Below are positions 21,819 through 28,734 of a stretch of 64,000 nucleotides of DNA, in pieces. The stretch is from NCBI GenBank assembly GCA_036267295.1, contig DATAWI010000008.1, forward strand, positions 21,373 to 85,372. Direction: 5' to 3'. This DNA is from Acidobacteriaceae bacterium (lineage in GTDB: Bacteria > Acidobacteriota > Terriglobia > Terriglobales > Acidobacteriaceae). Position 1 is the stretch's first letter; each line of letters opens with the position of its first letter. The notes beneath the pieces were generated by a model. It did not search any database. It was not told where the DNA came from and saw only the letters and a list, made by a program, of their open reading frames with translations. A program made the position numbers and the translations under genes.

Positions 21819-24467
21819 TCACGCCTTCCCCACCGCATGCCCCTCCAGCGGAATCCCCGCACGGCTCACCACCTCGAACTGCAGCGTCCCTTTGCCCGCC
21901 TCAATCCGCACATGGTCTCCGTGCAGTACCTCGCCATCCAGGATCTTCATCGCCAGCGGATCCTGAATCAGCCGCTGGATCGCCCGCTTCAGCGGCCGCG
22001 CTCCATACGCCCGGTCGTACCCCGCCGTGAAGATCTGTTGCCGCGCCGCTTTCGTCAGCTCGATCGTGATGTGCCGGTCCGCCAGCAGCTTCTCCAGCTC
22101 CTTCAGCCGCAGCTCCACGATGTGCTGCAACTGCTCCTCGCCCAGCGGACGGAAAATCACCACATCGTCCACCCGGTTCAGAAACTCCGGCCGGAAATGC
22201 TCCCGCAGCACCTTCAGCACGCTCTCCGTCGCATGCCCGAACGCCGTCTCATCCTTCAGCGAGTCGCCCTGTAAAAATGCCGCACCCAGATTCGACGTCA
22301 TGATCAGCACCGTGTTCTTGAAGTCCACCGTGCGTCCCTTCGCATCCGTCAGCCGCCCGTCGTCCAGAACTTGTAACAGTACGTTGAACACATCCGGGTG
22401 CGCCTTCTCGATCTCGTCCAGCAGAATCACCGCATACGGACGCCGCCGCACCGCTTCCGTCAACTGCCCGCCCTCGTCGTAGCCCACATACCCCGGAGGC
22501 GCGCCGATCAGCCGCGCCACCGCATGCTTCTCCATGTACTCGCTCATGTCCAGCCGTACCATCGCTTGCTCGTCGTCGAACAGAAACTCCGCCAGCGCCC
22601 GCGCCGTCTCCGTCTTCCCCACGCCCGTCGGCCCCAGAAAGATAAACGACCCAATCGGCCTCTTCGGATCGCTCAGACCCGCGCGCGATCGCCGAATCGC
22701 ATTCGCCACCGTGGTCAGCGCCACGTCCTGCCCCACCACGCGATCCCGCAGCCGCTCTTCCATCCGGACGAGCTTCTTCACCTCGCCCTCCAGCATCCGC
22801 GTCACCGGGATCCCCGTCCACTTGCTCACGATCTTCGCGATGTCTTCTTCGTCCACTTCCTCCTTCAGCATCCTCTGGGCGCTCGCCGCCACGCCGTCCT
22901 GCGCCTCTTCCAGCCTCTTCATCTCGGCTTCCAGCCGCGGCAGTTCGCCGTACTGGATCTGCGCCGCCCTCTCCAGATTCCCGCGCCGCGTCTGCTCATC
23001 GGCCTCAAACCGCAGCCCCTCGATCTGTTTCTTCAGGTCGCTCAGCCGCGTAATCGCCTCCCGCTCCTTCTGCCAGCGCGCCCGCAGCGCCGTCGCCTTC
23101 TCGCGCAGCTCCGCCACCTCGCGCTCCACCACCGTCAGCCGCTCTTTGGAGTTCGCATCGCTCTCCCGCTTCAGCGCCGTCCGCTCAATTTCCAGCGACG
23201 TCGCCGCCCGCTCCAGCTCGTCAATCTCCTGCGGCACGCTCCCAATTTGAATCGCCAGCGAAGCCGCCGCCTCATCCACCAGATCGATCGCCTTGTCCGG
23301 CAAAAACCGGTCCGATATATAACGATGCGACAAAGTCGCCGCTGCCACGATCGCCGAGTCCCGAATCCGCACCTTGTGGTGAGCCTCGTACCGCTCCTTC
23401 AGCCCCCGCAGAATCGCAATCGTGTCCTCCACGTTCGGCTCGCCCACATACACAATCTGGAACCGCCGCTCCAGCGCCGCGTCCTTCTCGATGTACTTCT
23501 TGTACTCATTCAGCGTGGTCGCGCCAATCGCCCGCAGCTCGCCCCGCGCCAGCGGCGGCTTCAGCATGTTGCTCGCGTCAATCGCTCCCTCCGCCGCCCC
23601 CGCGCCCACCAGCGTATGCAGCTCGTCGATGAACAGCACAATCTGCCCATTCGACTCCTCAATCTCCTTCAGCACCGCCTTCAGCCGGTCCTCGAACTCG
23701 CCGCGGTACTTCGCCCCCGCCAGCATCGACCCCAGGTCCAGCGAGATCACCCGCTTGTCCCGCAGCACATCCGGCACATCGCCATGCACAATCCGCCGCG
23801 CCAGCCCTTCCACAATCGCCGTCTTGCCCACGCCCGGCTCGCCAATCAGCACTGGATTATTCTTCGTCCGCCGCGACAGCACCTGGATCACCCGCCGAAT
23901 CTCCTCGTCCCGCCCAATCACCGGATCCAGCTTCCCCCGCCGCGCCAGCTCCGTCAGGTCCTTCGCATACTTCTCCAGCGCCTGGTACTTCGCTTCAGGA
24001 TTCTGATCCGTCACCCGCTGATTCCCGCGCACGCTCGCCAGCGACTTCAGCACCGCATCGTGCGTCGCGCCCAGCGACGCCAGCAGCAGCTGCGCCCCAT
24101 CATTCTTCTGGCTGGCCAGCGCCAGCAGCAGATGCTCCGTCGAGACGTACTCGTCCTTAAAGTTTTCCGCCTCTTTGAACGCCGCTTCGAAGACGCGATT
24201 CAGCGCCTGGCTCGCTCCCGGCTGCGCGCTCGCCCCGCTCACCTTCGGCAGTTGCTGCACCGCCTCCTGCGCCTTCGCCGCAAGTTGCGTCACCGGCACG
24301 CCAATCTTTTCGAGGACGGCCGGAATCACGCCCTCCGGGTCCGCCAGCAACACCGCCAGCAAATGCAGCGGCAAGATCTCCGGATTGCCATTCTCCGCCG
24401 CCAGTTGGCCCGCCGCCTGCACGGCCTCCTGCGACTTCACCGTGAATTTCTCCCAACGAATCGCCAT
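21819..24467 (-). CDS. clpB: ATP-dependent chaperone/disaggregase ClpB
   Basis: 882 aa. It has a Clp N-domain and two AAA+ modules ([15 protein letters not shown] and [15 protein letters not shown]). A long coiled-coil M-domain sits between them. The C-terminal region includes ..ARPLKRAIQ... Confidence 0.95.
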
Positions 24468-24503
24468 AGCTCTTCACCTCAAATTCAGCTCGCCCACCGC
24501 CAC

Positions 24504-24834
24504 GCCCCGCATCAGACGCCGCGCCAGCGGCACTGCGGTAGAATCCCCGGCCTTCAGGCCCGCCACCCCGCATCAGGCGCCCCGCATCAGGGGCCGCGCC
24601 AGCGGCCCTGCGGTAGAAGCCCCGGCCTTCAGGCCGGGGAAACAGGGTCCCAAAAAGGGAGGGCCTTCAGGCCCGGCACCCCGCATCAGGCGCCCCGCAT
24701 CGCCACCCCGCATCAGGCACCCCGCATCAGGCACCCCGCATCAGGGGCCGCGCCAGCGGCCCTGCGGTAGAAGCCCCGGCCTTCAGGCCGGGGAAACAAG
24801 GTCCCAAAAAGGGAGGGCCTTCAGGCCCGGCACC
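24504..24834 (+). repeat. repeat cluster upstream of clpB: about 100-nt B/C unit duplicated with 154-nt period, plus 8 copies of CCCCGCATCAGG
   Basis: Segments 24580-24680 and 24734-24834 are near-identical (I saw one G/A difference): CCCCGCATCAGGGGCCGCGCCAGCGGCCCTGCGGTAGAAGCCCCGGCCTTCAGGCCGGGGAAACA(G/A)GGTCCCAAAAAGGGAGGGCCTTCAGGCCCGGCACC. A partial third unit lies at 24504-24564. Short CCCCGCATCAGG(C/G) repeats are interspersed. Confidence 0.9.
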
Positions 24835-25317
24835 CCCCCACTCGCGAATTGCACCACGTCCCGAGGAGAATCCCAACAACGAACCGCCATCACCATAATC
24901 CCTCAGGTTGCCAATCAGAACTTGCGTGTTGAACCCGGCCGCGGACTCGCCTCCCGATGCAACCGGCACAACATTAGATGGCGACCATAGCAGCCTTGAT
25001 GCATAAAATATGAGTGAGTTAACATCATATTTTGCCCCACGGGAGTTGCAAACACTGACTTAAGCGCCGCCTCCGGTACGGGTGACCAAGGACCACAGCA
25101 CCTTTAGGTGGGAGCTACCGATCGATGGATAGCCGCCGCGCCGGTGGCGATTCATGGCGACAATAACGCATTACCGATCTCTCGCGCCGCCATCCACCCG
25201 CGAGGCTATAATCCGCCCATATCACCATCAATCTAATCGACCAATCTCCGCGGATATCGCGAGACCCAAGCGCCGATCCCGAAAGCGACGACGGATTAGC
25301 GGATTTAGGGGGACGCC

Positions 25318-27624
25318 TTGAAAGTTACTAGCATCCCGAAGATTTCCGGGTACCGGATATTCCGCAGCTTCACGTGGAATCTCCCGCTGGAAGATTTCCG
25401 CCGCTACAACCTCATTTTCGGCCCGAACGCATCAGGGAAGACGACCCTCTCTTGCCTGTTTCGCCTGATGGAGCAAAAGGGAGCCCTGTCGCCATCAGAT
25501 GGAGTCGCAACGTTCGCCTTCGACGGGACAAACATCAATGCAAGCGAGTTTGACCAGCGACCATTACCCAATGTCCGTGTATTCAATCGGGATACCGCTA
25601 AACGCTCCGTATTCGAAGACATGTCGGGTGAACTCCCTCCCGTCTTCTACTTCGGCGAGGACACTGCCGAAAAGCAAAAAGAGATTGCGGAGAAGAGAAA
25701 ACAGGCCGCAACCATTTCCGAACAGATAACTGCCTGCCGCCTCGCAATCGAAACGGCGGACACGGGATTCGAGGCTTTCTGTGTCGACTCTGCGCGAGCG
25801 GTGAAGAATCTGCTGACGGCAAGCGGCAGCGCCTATAACAACTACGACAAGTCGTCCTTCAAGTCGACCGCCGAAAAGATCCTTAAAGCTGACAAAGTAA
25901 TAGAGCCTCTGAAGAAACTGCGCCGCGAATCGCTGATATCGCTCAAAGGGAGCGCGGAAAAGCCACAGCTCCCCTCGATTTCAACCTCTCTCCCGGATTT
26001 CAATGCCCTCCGCACCCGGGTCAGAACGCTTCTTGAAACGACTGTGGCATCGGAACTCATCGCAACCCTCGTCAACCAGCCGAAGGTCGCCTCGTGGGTG
26101 AGCGAAGGATTGAGGCTGCACAAAGATGGAGACCGATGCAAGTTTTGTGACGAACCGATCCCGCCCGATCGCCTCAAACGACTCGAAGCACATTTCAACG
26201 ACCGATTTCGCATATTTCAGGCCGACTTGGATGCGGCATTGGACGAAATCGAGAGATCGAGGGGCCTTCTTGAGAAGGCGACGCCGAGCCAAGCCGAGTT
26301 CTACGACGATATGGCGAGCGAATACGCCGAATGCAAGTCGCAAGTTGACACCGCGATCCAAGAGGCCAGTCATGCCCTTAACGTCCTGCAGGGAGCGATC
26401 CGGTCGAAAAAGGGCAGCCCGTTCAACCCCATGGAAATTGACTGGGCGCCTCACGAGCGCACCCTGACAGATTCGAAAGCGAAGGCATTGTTTGATTTTT
26501 TCACTTCTGCCGAGGACAGGCTCGTCGAACGCTTCGGGGGAGCCGCAATAGCTGCATGCAACACGTTGATTGCGGCGCACAACAAGCGCGCAGGCAATCA
26601 TGCGAGGGAGGTCGCCGATGCGCGGAGAGAGCTAGAAGAAGACGAAGTCGCGACTCGCATCAAGAGCTATGCCTCCAGGAGGGAGCGAACCCGCGAGCAA
26701 CAGAACAAGTTCATTGAACTCCAGACTGCCGCCAGGCAAATGCAGGATGAGATTGCGGCCCTTGAAGCCTCCGTCCGAACCCACCAAAGGCCCGGGCAGG
26801 AACTGACGAAGGAGGTCGCAGCATACTTGGGCAACAGCGAACTGACCTTCGAAGTGAAGGATACTGGCTACGCAATCAAAAGAAGCGGCCGTCCGGCGAT
26901 GAACCTGAGCGAGGGCGAAAGAACCGCAATCGCTTTTCTTTATTTTCTGAAATCGCTCAGCGACACCAATTTCAGCCTTAAAGACGGGATCGTTTTGATC
27001 GATGACCCCGTGTCGAGCCTGGACGCTAACTCACTCTATTGCGCGTTCGGGTGCCTGAAGGCGAAGTGCGCCAACGCTGGACAACTTTTTATCCTCACTC
27101 ACAACTTCACCCTGTTCCGATTGACCAGAGAGTGGTTCCACCACATCTCGCCTAAGGACCAGACACGCTTCTACATGCTTGGAACGGACTACCTCACCAC
27201 CGGTCGAGGAGCGAAGATTGCCCCGCTCGACCCGCTCCTCCGAGAGTACGAATCCGAGTACCAATACCTATTCAAGTGCGTGGTTGAAGGAAGTTCGGCC
27301 TCGACGATTGGAGGCGACCTTGCCTCCTACTACGGCGCGGTCAATGTCGCACGCCGAGTAATGGAGGCATTTCTTGCGTTCAAGCTGCCCCACTTGGGGC
27401 CCAACCTGCACAGGAAGCTGGAAGAAATACCCTTTGATCCGGCGAAGAAGGCTCGCATACTTCGCTTCCTGAATGTCGGATCACACGCCGGAGAGATCGG
27501 CGAGCCGGAGCACGACATCTCGATTTTGTCCGAGACGCCTGCGGTGCTCGCCGACCTGCTGGAAATGATCAAATCGGTAGACGCGGCACACCACGATGGG
27601 ATGCGACAAAAGCTCGGTATCTAG
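25318..27624 (+). CDS. RloC/PrrC-type anticodon-nuclease ATPase (AAA_13 family; Rad50-like ABC ATPase with CXXC hook and C-terminal ACNase-like domain)
   Basis: TTG start with GGGGGA 7 nt upstream and an in-frame TAG 9 nt upstream. Walker A GPNASGKTT at aa 35-43. A roughly 490-aa helical insert carries CKFC (aa 274-277) close to its midpoint. ABC signature LSEGERTAIAF, Walker B IVLIDDPVSSLD and H-loop LTHN follow. The C-terminus has NVARRVMEAFLAFK (R-x3-E) and RFLNVGSHAGE (His), matching the PrrC/RloC nuclease motifs as I recall them. Codon usage is visibly less GC3-biased than in the neighbours. Confidence 0.8.
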   Translation: MKVTSIPKISGYRIFRSFTWNLPLEDFRRYNLIFGPNASGKTTLSCLFRLMEQKGALSPSDGVATFAFDGTNINASEFDQRPLPNVRVFNRDTAKRSVFEDMSGELPPVFYFGEDTAEKQKEIAEKRKQAATISEQITACRLAIETADTGFEAFCVDSARAVKNLLTASGSAYNNYDKSSFKSTAEKILKADKVIEPLKKLRRESLISLKGSAEKPQLPSISTSLPDFNALRTRVRTLLETTVASELIATLVNQPKVASWVSEGLRLHKDGDRCKFCDEPIPPDRLKRLEAHFNDRFRIFQADLDAALDEIERSRGLLEKATPSQAEFYDDMASEYAECKSQVDTAIQEASHALNVLQGAIRSKKGSPFNPMEIDWAPHERTLTDSKAKALFDFFTSAEDRLVERFGGAAIAACNTLIAAHNKRAGNHAREVADARRELEEDEVATRIKSYASRRERTREQQNKFIELQTAARQMQDEIAALEASVRTHQRPGQELTKEVAAYLGNSELTFEVKDTGYAIKRSGRPAMNLSEGERTAIAFLYFLKSLSDTNFSLKDGIVLIDDPVSSLDANSLYCAFGCLKAKCANAGQLFILTHNFTLFRLTREWFHHISPKDQTRFYMLGTDYLTTGRGAKIAPLDPLLREYESEYQYLFKCVVEGSSASTIGGDLASYYGAVNVARRVMEAFLAFKLPHLGPNLHRKLEEIPFDPAKKARILRFLNVGSHAGEIGEPEHDISILSETPAVLADLLEMIKSVDAAHHDGMRQKLGI

Positions 27625-27871
27625 AAGGCAGATCCCGGCCCCGATCCGTTCCCCAATTAGCTCGCCTCTTGCGATTCCGAACAAGTTGCTGCCAAGACAC
27701 GGCGTCGGCCCCTCGCACGACCCCCCGGTGGAAACTTGTCAATCCCTTACGAAAGTCATGCCCTCCCTAACCCCTGCATTTGCCGCGCCCAATGCCCCGC
27801 CAACCCCCAAAATATTTGGCAGTCTAATGATCCAAACTTGGTATTCTGGATATAGAGAGTAAGAAACAAAG

Positions 27872-27900
27872 AAAGGCCGCCAAAGAGCGGCCTTTTCCCT
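27872..27900 (+). terminator. Rho-independent terminator closing the rloC-like insertion
   Basis: AAAGGCCGC-CAAAGA-GCGGCCUUU followed by UCCCUU. It marks the point where composition returns to GC-rich. The hairpin is symmetric enough to work on either strand. Confidence 0.6.
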
Positions 27901-27958
27901 TGCTGGCCGCTCCCCTCACGGGCCGGCCCGGCACCACGATTCCATCCGAGGCGATCCC

Positions 27959-28468
27959 ATGTTCCGCGAATGCTCCTCCATTCTGCCCAACGGCCGCAAA
28001 TGCCGCTGCGCCGCCACCCGCAACCGCGCCGTCTGCCGCCATCACGGACCCCCGCCCGTTCCCGGCCCGCCGCCCACCCCCCACCGCGACCGCTACTCCG
28101 ACCTCATCCGCTGGCGAACCCTCAGCCGCAACCTCCCCTGGATGCCCCTCGACGAAATTCCGCACGCCATCCATCAAATCCTCCAGTGTCTGGTCGATCG
28201 CGGCCCCGACTCCCCCGGCAAAATCTCCGACCTCACCGCCGGCCGCTACCTGCGCGTCCTCCTCACCCGTCTCGGCGGCGTTCCCTTTGCCGATCCCGAC
28301 CTGGCGCTCGAGCCGCCCCCGCCGCGCGGCGCTCCCGCTCCCGTGCCAGCCCCAGCCGATCCCTCCGACCTGAACGAGCTCAACGCCCTGCTCGCCGCCC
28401 TCGCCCAGCACGCCCAGCCCGGCCCGCAACCGCCTCTGCCTCAATCGCACCGGCGAGTGCATCAATGA
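27959..28468 (+). CDS. hypothetical protein with N-terminal Cys/His cluster and Pro-rich regions
   Basis: MFRECSSILPNGRKCRCAATRNRAVCRHHGPP.. gives C-x9-C-x-C-x9-C-x-HH. The third positions are strongly C-rich in this frame. The competing ORF 27824..28465(-) is G/A/V-rich shadow. No family was recognised. Confidence 0.45.
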   Translation: MFRECSSILPNGRKCRCAATRNRAVCRHHGPPPVPGPPPTPHRDRYSDLIRWRTLSRNLPWMPLDEIPHAIHQILQCLVDRGPDSPGKISDLTAGRYLRVLLTRLGGVPFADPDLALEPPPPRGAPAPVPAPADPSDLNELNALLAALAQHAQPGPQPPLPQSHRRVHQ

Positions 28469-28606
28469 CGAGCATCACCCCATCAATCGCGAGCGCCATT
28501 GACACAATGGCGAGCGCCTCGCAAGTGATGGGTTATCAATCATCTGCCCGGATCATGCGCGCCAATGAATCAAAGGCACGCGCCTCTGACGCAATCGCGA
28601 GCGTCT
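28441..28606 (+). repeat. iteron-like array of CAAT(C/G)GCGAGCG(C/T)C direct repeats
   Basis: CAAT starts at 28442, 28463, 28484 and 28505, an exact 21-nt phase. Further copies start at 28537, 28563 and 28592. The best units are TCAATCGCGAGCGCC (28483), ACAATGGCGAGCGCC (28504) and GCAATCGCGAGCGTC (28591). Confidence 0.75.
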
Positions 28607-28734
28607 CCCAACTGACTTGCTGTCGATCACTTGCCGCAGCCCAGACAAGGCCACCGCGCTAAACCCAGCAGAATCAATCAACCGTTTTTCTCGCCCCACA
28701 GAGAGGCGGGACAGCCGCGGTCGCTTGGGCGCGC

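Follow-up and report, generated by a model that had tools for sequence, protein, structure and literature searches.

The window analysed here, a 64-kb stretch of an Acidobacteriaceae bacterium chromosome, contains an open reading frame of 768 aa with a TTG start, which lies between clpB and an orphan gene for a 169-aa protein of host-like composition; SPFH, PPDK, GH3 and MFS genes are further neighbours. The product is named 'AAA family ATPase' in the GenBank record. A previous reading made from the letters alone (the sequence-only reading) had given the gene the limits listed in Table 1, and the same frame was recovered in our analysis. The TTG start is correct, since alignments to the PADLOC profile and to the homologues begin at residue 1, and a protein initiated at the next in-frame start would lack the P-loop; a Shine-Dalgarno-like site, GGGGGA, is present 5 nt upstream of the TTG.

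Table 1. Features of the rloC-type locus and its flanks (positions in the window; aa, residues of the 768-aa protein).
Feature	Position	Strand	Remarks
Low-GC non-coding leader	24847-25317	+	GC change point at about 24847
rloC-type gene	25318-27624	+	768 aa, TTG start; matches to AAA_13, PDC-S06 and the CH34 RloC orthologue
Walker A / P-loop GPNASGKTT	25420-25446	+	aa 35-43; K41 invariant
Helical (coiled-coil type) insert splitting the ABC head	25657-26829	+	aa 114-504; secondary structure of AlphaFold model
CKFC zinc-hook motif	26137-26148	+	aa 274-277; C274 and C277 invariant
ABC C-lobe motifs	26905-27105	+	LSEGE aa 530-534, IVLIDDPVSSLD aa 558-569, LTHN aa 593-596
C-terminal all-helical anticodon-nuclease (HEPN-type) domain, predicted	27232-27621	+	aa 639-768
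3' tail, apparently non-coding	27625-27871	+	247 nt
GC-rich hairpin AAAGGCCGC-CAAAGA-GCGGCCTTT	27872-27895		10 pairs

All motifs which had been read from the letters, i.e., those of an ABC-ATPase, CKFC and an R-x3-E ... H arrangement, were located in the protein. Besides the positions given in Table 1, LSEGERTAIAF was found at residues 530–540, NVARRVMEAF at 676–685 and NVGSHAG at 719–725; IVLIDDPVSSLD represents Walker B plus the D-loop, and LTHN contains the switch histidine. The distance from the P-loop to the signature motif is about 490 aa, as had been described for the helical insert; the helices of the AlphaFold model account for about 390 aa of it. The CKFC motif had been placed close to the midpoint of the insert, which is only approximately so, since the CxxC is situated at about 43% of the helical span. 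The predicted catalytic triad is encoded by codons at 27352–27354 (R679), 27364–27366 (E683) and 27484–27486 (H723). In addition, R716-x6-H723 corresponds to the HEPN-type Rx4-6H motif; an RNase fold of HEPN type with this motif is expected for the C-terminal domain of RloC (PMC3710099). Across 33 homologues the following residues were invariant: K41, C274, C277, S531, E534, D562, D563, S566, S567, L568, D569, H595, R679, E683, R716, S722 and H723. The CxxC was found in all of 120 homologues, and the arrangement R-x3-E-x39-SH in 119 of the 120.

The sequence-only reading had suggested searches with the AAA_13 profile and with PADLOC, and both gave matches over the full length. Residues 12–748 were aligned to positions 2–712 of the 713 positions of Pfam AAA_13 (E 3.3e-144), and residues 1–764 were matched by PADLOC PDC-S06 (best model PDLC04894, E 1.6e-245). 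PDC-S06, a PADLOC candidate which is likewise a single-gene system, is a computational label and in effect a renaming of AAA_13/RloC-like genes; the titles and abstracts of papers mentioning it do not describe a separate mechanism. By tblastn, the protein from Cupriavidus metallidurans CH34 (YP_587691/Q3RRA9, Q3RRA9_RALME) showed 39.5% identity across 99% of the length (E 9e-159). This protein is RloC orthologue no. 37 in Table S1 of the original description of the family and is aligned in its Fig. S1 (PMC2610378); transitively, via the CH34 row, CKFC aligns with the CxxC block of that figure. An approximate query for residues 121–480 of GkaRloC, rebuilt from the Fig. S1 OCR, gave no protein database match at E<=1e-10, probably due to OCR errors. 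In JGI, homologues are annotated as 'wobble nucleotide-excising tRNase', and the RloC-like family is large, since 1352 cluster representatives matched at E<=1e-30.

The published C-proximal triad of RloC is Arg-x3-Glu-x36-52-His, often with a Ser preceding the His, and the published size is 658–897 aa (PMC2610378). With R679-x3-E683-x39-S722-H723 and 768 aa, the protein is within both ranges and has the Ser ahead of the His. The ABC motifs and a coiled-coil insert with a central CxxC are shared with GkaRloC and AbaRloC (COG4694 / AAA_13); the hook is at C274 of 768 residues here and at C291 of 804 in GkaRloC, whose triad is R692/E696/H737. A stand-alone gene and a rare start codon are further likenesses. 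Differences were noted in the host phylum, as Acidobacteriota were not found by a word search of the supplementary table of PMC2610378, in the absence of visible mobile-element remnants beside the gene and in the P-loop, which in this protein and a few relatives is GPNASGKT or AANGSGKT (GPNASGKT here), compared to the family consensus GWNGxGKT.

The designation had originally been "RloC/PrrC-type". Its first half is retained, because of the full-length family match, the hook and the triad; the second half is not, since no PrrC profile match extends into the nuclease domain. The PADLOC PrrC model covered only residues 461–613, i.e., the C-lobe of the ATPase (model positions 90–226 of 372, E 4.3e-7), and the C-terminal domain alone as query matched only PDC-S06 models. 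PrrC, the tRNA-Lys anticodon nuclease of the E. coli prr locus, also combines an N-terminal ABC-ATPase domain with a C-terminal R/E/H (HEPN) RNase and acts by abortive infection via tRNA cleavage, for which the counterpart here would be a predicted one. However, PrrC has about 340–416 aa without coiled coil or zinc hook, is always located within a type Ic hsd operon which silences it, is stabilised by dTTP, and nicks the anticodon loop, whereas RloC excises the wobble base. Thus, an identity as PrrC was rejected on the basis of the size of 768 aa, the helical insert with its CxxC, the lack of a linked hsd operon and the restriction of the PrrC profile to the ATPase. Rad50/SbcC, which act with Mre11/SbcD, resemble the protein in the split ABC head, the long antiparallel coiled coil and the CxxC zinc hook; they differ from it, since the 768-aa protein possesses an additional helical C-terminal domain of about 130 aa with the R/E/H triad, a predicted RNase, and no Mre11/SbcD partner gene is present beside the rloC-type gene. 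Judged from its sequence, the core identification as a stand-alone RloC-type ABC-ATPase/zinc-hook/anticodon-nuclease gene near clpB is correct, and the predicted product is an ordinary, intact-looking member of the RloC family, a known kind of anti-phage suicide enzyme that cuts tRNA.

The segment had been described as A/T-richer and less GC3-biased than its surroundings, and computations of sliding GC, GC3 and tetranucleotide usage, which had been proposed along with this description, agree. The lowest-GC stretch of 2911 nt in the entire window starts at 24964 and has a GC content of 0.554, compared to a mean of 0.638 (sd 0.024); GC3 of the gene is 0.674, that of nine neighbouring genes 0.78–0.85. 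The 2.5-kb windows at 25501–28000 and 25001–27500 were the most deviant in tetranucleotides (0.034 versus a mean of 0.020, sd 0.004). GC change points were found at about 24847, directly after a GC-rich repeat array, and at about 27902, just past the hairpin. The segment itself is real, but its left edge had been set too far to the right; with the change point at about 24847, it lies about 140 nt to the left of 24990. Contigs from Logan have left ends at 24807 and 24812, which were rejected as island borders; a 119-nt repeat probably explains them, as both positions fall into the final 30 nt of its second copy. A common right end of the Logan contigs is at 27757. When both edges were compared in search of att sites or of repeats flanking the segment, the 11-mer GGCCCGGCACC scored highest among direct matches; its score was reached by 68 of 300 shuffles, and it was not accepted as a target duplication.

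The leader contains a perfect 9-bp palindrome, AAAATATGA-N11-TCATATTTT (25005–25033), and an isolated TATAAT (25207–25212). A promoter scan of the plus strand gave weak candidates only, none of them convincing. Neither leader nor tail showed folding beyond that of shuffled sequences (z -0.17 and 0.46, respectively), and there was no Rfam match and no tRNA in the window. DNA similarity to the loci of homologues stops at 27615. The terminator expected downstream of the gene is present as a hairpin, but it passed the terminator scan on the minus strand only, the U-tract on the plus strand being weak; it is a probable transcription stop of the rloC-type gene. An untranslated tail with a 34-codon ORF (27758–27862) had also been pointed out. 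Both exist; the significance of the ORF is without support, and it is best regarded as a chance occurrence, since its GC3 is 0.46, it matches no family and nothing similar adjoins any of the homologues. A 55-aa ORF (25154–25321) overlaps the start of the gene (TTGA); at the other end, two ORFs of 88 and 34 aa overlap the stop or lie beyond it. As partners or antitoxins, all three were rejected on account of missing Pfam matches, non-coding-like GC3 and missing counterparts at the loci of homologues.

In the 10 kb to each side of the gene and among the other large genes of the window, no R-M (Hsd), integrase or defence genes were detected, which bears out the earlier statement on the adjacent region, and a partner gene neither adjoins the gene here nor is conserved beside its homologues. 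When the exact proteins (the gene product, ClpB and the 169-aa neighbour) were looked up, every contig retrieved had the identical arrangement; relatives of the 169-aa protein were not found in GTDB genomes or in a JGI metagenome scan. The four closest ClpB loci (76–84% identity) do not carry the rloC-type gene, and those of the closest genomes showed no synteny beyond clpB. The nearest relatives of the rloC-type protein are 61% and 53% identical, the following ones about 40%. Most matches are metagenome sequences, and those with an organism name are mostly from Betaproteobacteria. Plasmid records with homologues number 224, and 151 of these are conjugative; some homologues are located beside integrase and Hachiman genes, others inside hsd operons, and the homologous genes are likewise AT-richer than their surroundings.

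The segment had been called an insertion. As a compositional outlier this stands; for the insertion event itself, neither an empty-site allele nor a mobility gene nor a significant flanking repeat was found, although it is plausible. From composition and phylogeny only, we infer that the rloC-type gene was probably acquired horizontally. It could perhaps be an old resident instead, with a low GC content caused by the Lys/Glu-rich amino acid composition of the coiled coil and by low expression; the edges without integrase, tRNA, transposase or significant direct repeat would be consistent with this, as would the identical arrangement in every contig of the species that was found. The drop in GC3 and the tetranucleotide deviation are, however, largely independent of amino acid content, and the deviation reaches into the non-coding leader and tail. 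Together with the absence of the gene from the four closest ClpB loci and the scatter of its relatives over phyla, plasmids and defence islands, this makes long residence unlikely. It is very unlikely that the gene is what remains of an old transfer, silent or in decay, with poor expression and no functional relevance for the host, and heading for loss. The TTG start, the lack of a clear promoter and the lack of mobility or partner genes would fit such a state, and decay does occur in this clade, as seen in the close relative P0004 (60% identity), where an internal deletion has removed the nuclease domain; yet here 768 codons are intact with all invariant residues kept, independent samples yielded the same sequence, and rare start codons and a predicted low expression are usual for RloC genes (PMC2610378).

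Structure prediction raised the question of a different function. The best Foldseek matches of the AlphaFold model were Rad50, SMC, cohesin, Lamassu LmuB and JetC. For the whole protein no PDB relatives were found by sequence; a profile search gave only a marginal match to the Rad50 head (E 8e-4), and with the C-terminal domain no PDB sequence was matched. That domain was modelled with a pLDDT of 86.7, and its best TM-scores (0.47–0.56) were to HepT, AF_0298 and AbiV HEPN proteins, every match having E>0.1. The predicted fold thus appears to be Rad50/SMC-like with a helical C-terminal domain which weakly resembles HEPN proteins. The protein might then be an ABC-ATPase of Rad50/SMC type whose role is limited to DNA sensing or processing, either in repair or as the sensor subunit in a defence system of several genes, like LmuB, AriA or PtuA, with the effector encoded elsewhere and the C-terminal domain serving as a non-catalytic adaptor. 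Foldseek and profile matches to Rad50, SMC, LmuB, PtuA (Septu), AriA (PARIS) and JetC, weaker PADLOC matches to LmuB (Lamassu) and AriA, and a C-terminal domain devoid of a significant structural match would speak for such a sensor. But matches of the sensor type span only ATPase and coiled coil, whereas AAA_13 and PDC-S06 cover the whole length including the C-terminal domain; the R-x3-E...SH triad and the Rx6H motif do not vary within the family, and a partner gene is lacking here as at the loci of homologues. We consider this the least probable of the explanations. Hardly more probable is a divergent RloC lineage, as might be read from relatives at 45–61% identity, some beside integrase or Hachiman genes, and from the variant P-loop; it could differ in nucleotide requirement, trigger or tRNA target and would have become fixed in a core region of the chromosome, beside the gene for the stress chaperone ClpB, through an insertion leaving no integrase, repeat or tRNA scar.

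It is probable, in our view, that the segment at about 24847–27901 represents a single gene of the RloC family, horizontally acquired as single-gene defence cargo, with a mechanism similar to that of GkaRloC and AbaRloC. Its activity, trigger and tRNA target we infer by homology from the RloC proteins of Geobacillus kaustophilus and Acinetobacter baylyi (PMC2610378, PMC3458546, PMC3874168). The protein would dimerise via the Rad50-like ABC-ATPase head, from which the coiled coil would project with the CxxC zinc hook at its tip. In the resting state, hook and ATPase would hold the C-terminal HEPN-type RNase silent, and so a separate antitoxin or R-M partner would be unnecessary. DNA ends, which phage attack, restriction or genotoxic stress could generate, would bind to the head and, with hydrolysis of ATP, bring about release of the RNase. 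This enzyme would then cut tRNA 3' and subsequently 5' of the wobble base, which would be excised; translation would halt, and the infection would be aborted or the cell paused. Expression in this family is typically low, and the TTG start and the weakness of the promoter signals agree with this.

How the nuclease is kept latent without an R-M system had been called open in the sequence-only reading. This is answered by published work: the internal switch, consisting of zinc hook and DNA-end-dependent ATPase, was put forward to account for lateral transfer 'without an external silencer' (PMC3458546), and inducers of double-strand breaks activate RloC in its natural host, even if that is R-M-deficient (PMC3874168). 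Linkage to R-M systems is rare, as it was reported for 8 of 72 RloC genes (PMC2610378), and it is usual in the family for the gene to lack an accompanying restriction system. Hence the locus raises no new question, since the latency of stand-alone RloC is already explained by the switch. It adds an example from the Acidobacteriota to a known family of single-gene anti-phage and stress tRNases, and indicates that such a gene can occupy a core chromosomal region without mobile-element scars. The practical value is one of annotation, since 'AAA family ATPase' could be replaced by RloC-type anticodon nuclease, and the gene would be a candidate for studying how RloC functions in a phylum of soil bacteria from which few defence systems have been characterised.

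Judged from its predicted product, the rloC-type gene is an intact-looking RloC-type anticodon nuclease gene of an Acidobacteriaceae chromosome. The protein matched Pfam family AAA_13 with residues 12-748 (model positions 2-712 of 713, E 3.3e-144) and the PADLOC single-gene candidate system PDC-S06 with residues 1-764 (E 1.6e-245); in JGI/COG naming, many homologues are called "wobble nucleotide-excising tRNase". At E<=1e-3 the family comprised 4521 cluster representatives, of which 1352 also passed E<=1e-30. The defining features of RloC are ABC motifs, a coiled-coil insert that carries CxxC, and Arg-x3-Glu-x36-52-His, in which Ser often precedes His (PMC2610378). Across 33 aligned homologues (38-61% identity), invariant positions included K41 of the P-loop, S531 and E534 of the signature, D562 and D563 of Walker B, S566, S567, L568 and D569 of the D-loop, H595 of the switch, the hook residues C274 and C277, and R679, E683, R716, S722 and H723; the arrangement R-x3-E-x39-SH was present in 119 of 120 homologues. 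Motifs quoted in the sequence-only reading, which had named the gene RloC/PrrC-type, were all found where they had been placed in the ORF. Its RloC identification was upheld and the PrrC framing was dropped, since the PADLOC PrrC model matched the ATPase C-lobe only (E 4e-7). A tblastn search of plasmid records yielded a chromid protein of Cupriavidus (formerly Ralstonia) metallidurans CH34 (39.5% identity, 99% of query, E 9e-159), whose translation agrees with the Q3RRA9_RALME rows of Fig. S1 (PMC2610378); "Ralstonia metallidurans CH34 YP_587691" is RloC orthologue no. 37 in Table S1 of the same work.

The proposed TTG start is credible, because the best PADLOC profile alignment begins at residue 1, the alignment with homologues, the Cupriavidus protein among them, starts at their first residues, the P-loop would be lost with the next in-frame start, and the TTG is preceded by a GGGGGA site at a distance of 5 nt. 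Such a start fits the rare start codons and predicted low expression of RloC genes (PMC2610378). The P-loop (25420-25446, aa 35-43) reads GPNASGKT, AANGSGKT or AGNGTGKT in the protein and the three full-length relatives closest to it, as against GWNGxGKT in every other homologue shown in the alignment; by alignment, this variant beside the nucleotide-binding lysine is a clade-specific change.

An alignment-based AlphaFold model (mean pLDDT 79.8) consisted of N-lobe strands, helices (114-504), a C-lobe and an all-helical C-domain (639-767), with low confidence at the apex around CxxC. The best Foldseek PDB matches were Rad50 (7zr1_C, E 4.6e-6), SMC heads with coiled coil and cohesin, and further retron/Septu PtuA, Lamassu LmuB and JetC. 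The C-domain modelled alone (pLDDT 86.7, pTM 0.82) had no significant structural match in the PDB; its highest TM-scores (0.47-0.56, none significant) were to the HEPN proteins HepT (6m6u, 6m6w, 5yep, 7bxo) and AF_0298 (2hsb), and AbiV was also among these non-significant matches. As weak evidence, these scores agree with the published assignment of the RloC and PrrC nuclease domain to HEPN (PMC3710099). A sequence search found no solved RloC or PrrC structure.

Features in and around the low-GC segment (window coordinates)
Feature	Coordinates	Strand	Remarks
clpB	21819-24467	-	left of segment; GH3 and MFS genes further out
Repeat array	24470-24840		GC 0.72; between clpB start and segment
Array hairpins scoring as terminators	24828-24815; 24674-24661	-	
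Palindrome	25005-25033		perfect, 9 bp, AAAATATGA-N11-TCATATTTT; in most AT-rich patch of leader (GC 0.48)
rloC-type gene	25318-27624	+	768 codons, TTG start; sole long ORF of region
Hairpin	27872-27895		3' of rloC-type gene tail
169-aa orphan gene	27959-28468	+	right of segment; GC3 0.82 (host composition)

The compositional deviation claimed earlier was borne out on computation. The 2911-nt stretch with the lowest GC in the window starts at 24964 (0.554 vs a mean of 0.638, sd 0.024), GC3 of the gene is 0.674 vs 0.78-0.85 in nine surrounding genes, and tetranucleotide deviation peaks in two 2.5-kb windows, 25501-28000 and 25001-27500. By two-segment change points, the segment extends from about 24847 to about 27902, its left edge being about 140 nt left of the earlier coordinate and directly after the GC-rich repeat array. 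This array contains two 119-nt copies (98% identity, spacing 154 nt) with 14-nt CCCCGCATCAGGC[AG] sub-repeats and GGCCTTCAGGCC(GGGG) hairpins; the two sub-motifs looked for had no further copy in the window. Weak promoter-like hexamers on either strand coincide in part with the palindrome, which may serve the rloC gene as operator or promoter. The 247-nt tail described previously exists, as does its 34-codon ORF; this ORF forms the last part of a longer one of 88 codons in the same reading frame, has non-coding-like GC3, and had no family match and no counterpart at any homologue locus. For two independent runs (SRR11832711, SRR11836411), the Logan contigs stop at the shared position 27757, and the next contig begins at 27734 within the tail, the sequence 27734-27757 being unique in the window; this hints at an assembly-graph branch near the right edge, from strain variation or a repeat elsewhere.

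The orphan gene had no Pfam or PHROG family, and its protein had no relative in the GTDB genome or JGI metagenome scans. Its N-terminus is Cys-/His-rich (C-x8-C-x-C-x9-C-x-HH), with Pro-rich linkers, and longer overlapping ORFs (27970-28662, +; 27824-28465, -) look like shadow frames. Further right come an SPFH gene, PPDK, PadR and a MacB-type transporter. Elsewhere in the window, the large genes encode housekeeping or carbohydrate-related products, including TonB-type outer-membrane proteins, glycosidases and a molybdopterin oxidoreductase. The window had no tRNA and no Rfam match, and the annotated 10-kb flanks and the large genes scanned yielded no R-M, integrase or transposase domains. The same gene arrangement is present on a 468-kb JGI contig.

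Foreign origin is indicated by composition, whose deviation continues into the non-coding sequence on both sides of the gene, and by homologue distribution. The nearest relatives are 61% and 53% identical and the remainder about 40%; the majority of matches are metagenome sequences, and Betaproteobacteria account for most of those at about 40% that bear an organism name. Homologues were located on 224 plasmid records (151 conjugative), beside phage-type integrase and Hachiman genes, in a defence island and in hsdM-hsdS-rloC-hsdR operons, and are also AT-richer than their hosts. The "insertion" of the sequence-only reading is thus a well-supported inference rather than a demonstrated event, because no empty-site allele was found (the gene is present on every contig of this species), flanking repeats at the segment edges were not significant, and the flanks had no DNA similarity to any homologue locus. 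The closest ClpB loci shared no synteny with the window locus.

The closest relative with genomic context available, P0004 (60% aa identity; loci L087, 10001-11773, and L088, 8405-10177), has an internal deletion corresponding to window 27053-27516, with the switch His and nuclease triad gone; its gene adjoins a phage-type integrase and, in L088, also a Hachiman system (HamA and DEAD helicase). At the CH34 locus (L092, NC_007974.2, 2315758-2318064), the PLSDB gene table for this record annotates no feature at the listed orthologue; gene and local region have a GC of 0.55-0.56, presumably below that of the whole CH34 genome, which suggests that this gene also lies in a genomic island. Since the homologues P0013 and P0008 (41-42% identity; L095/L096, 3098-12653; L097, 3070-11511) lie inside type I R-M operons of the order hsdM-hsdS-rloC-hsdR, the same subfamily is both R-M-linked and solitary. 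In L097 the homologue has a 4-nt overlap with each of its neighbours, the hsdS and hsdR-type genes; in L095/L096 about 50 nt separate its start from the preceding hsdS, and hsdR lies about 1 kb downstream past three small genes.

GkaRloC cuts tRNA 3' and then 5' of the wobble base; its triad mutants are inactive and its hook mutants hyperactive (PMC2610378). The RloC RNase is turned on by a DNA-dependent ATPase sensitive to DNA ends, an internal switch proposed as the reason why rloC transfers "without an external silencer" (PMC3458546). By analogy with these experiments, the protein described here would cleave tRNA at the wobble base under an internal DNA-dependent ATPase/zinc-hook switch. 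Stand-alone genes are the norm for RloC; as of 2008, R-M linkage had been seen in only 8 of 72 (PMC2610378). How a solitary gene is kept latent, which had been posed as an open question, was therefore already answered by published family data, and the claimed mystery falls away. Three points only are new here: the host phylum, the clade-specific P-loop (GPNASGKT/AANGSGKT vs GWNGxGKT) and the scar-free location in a core region.
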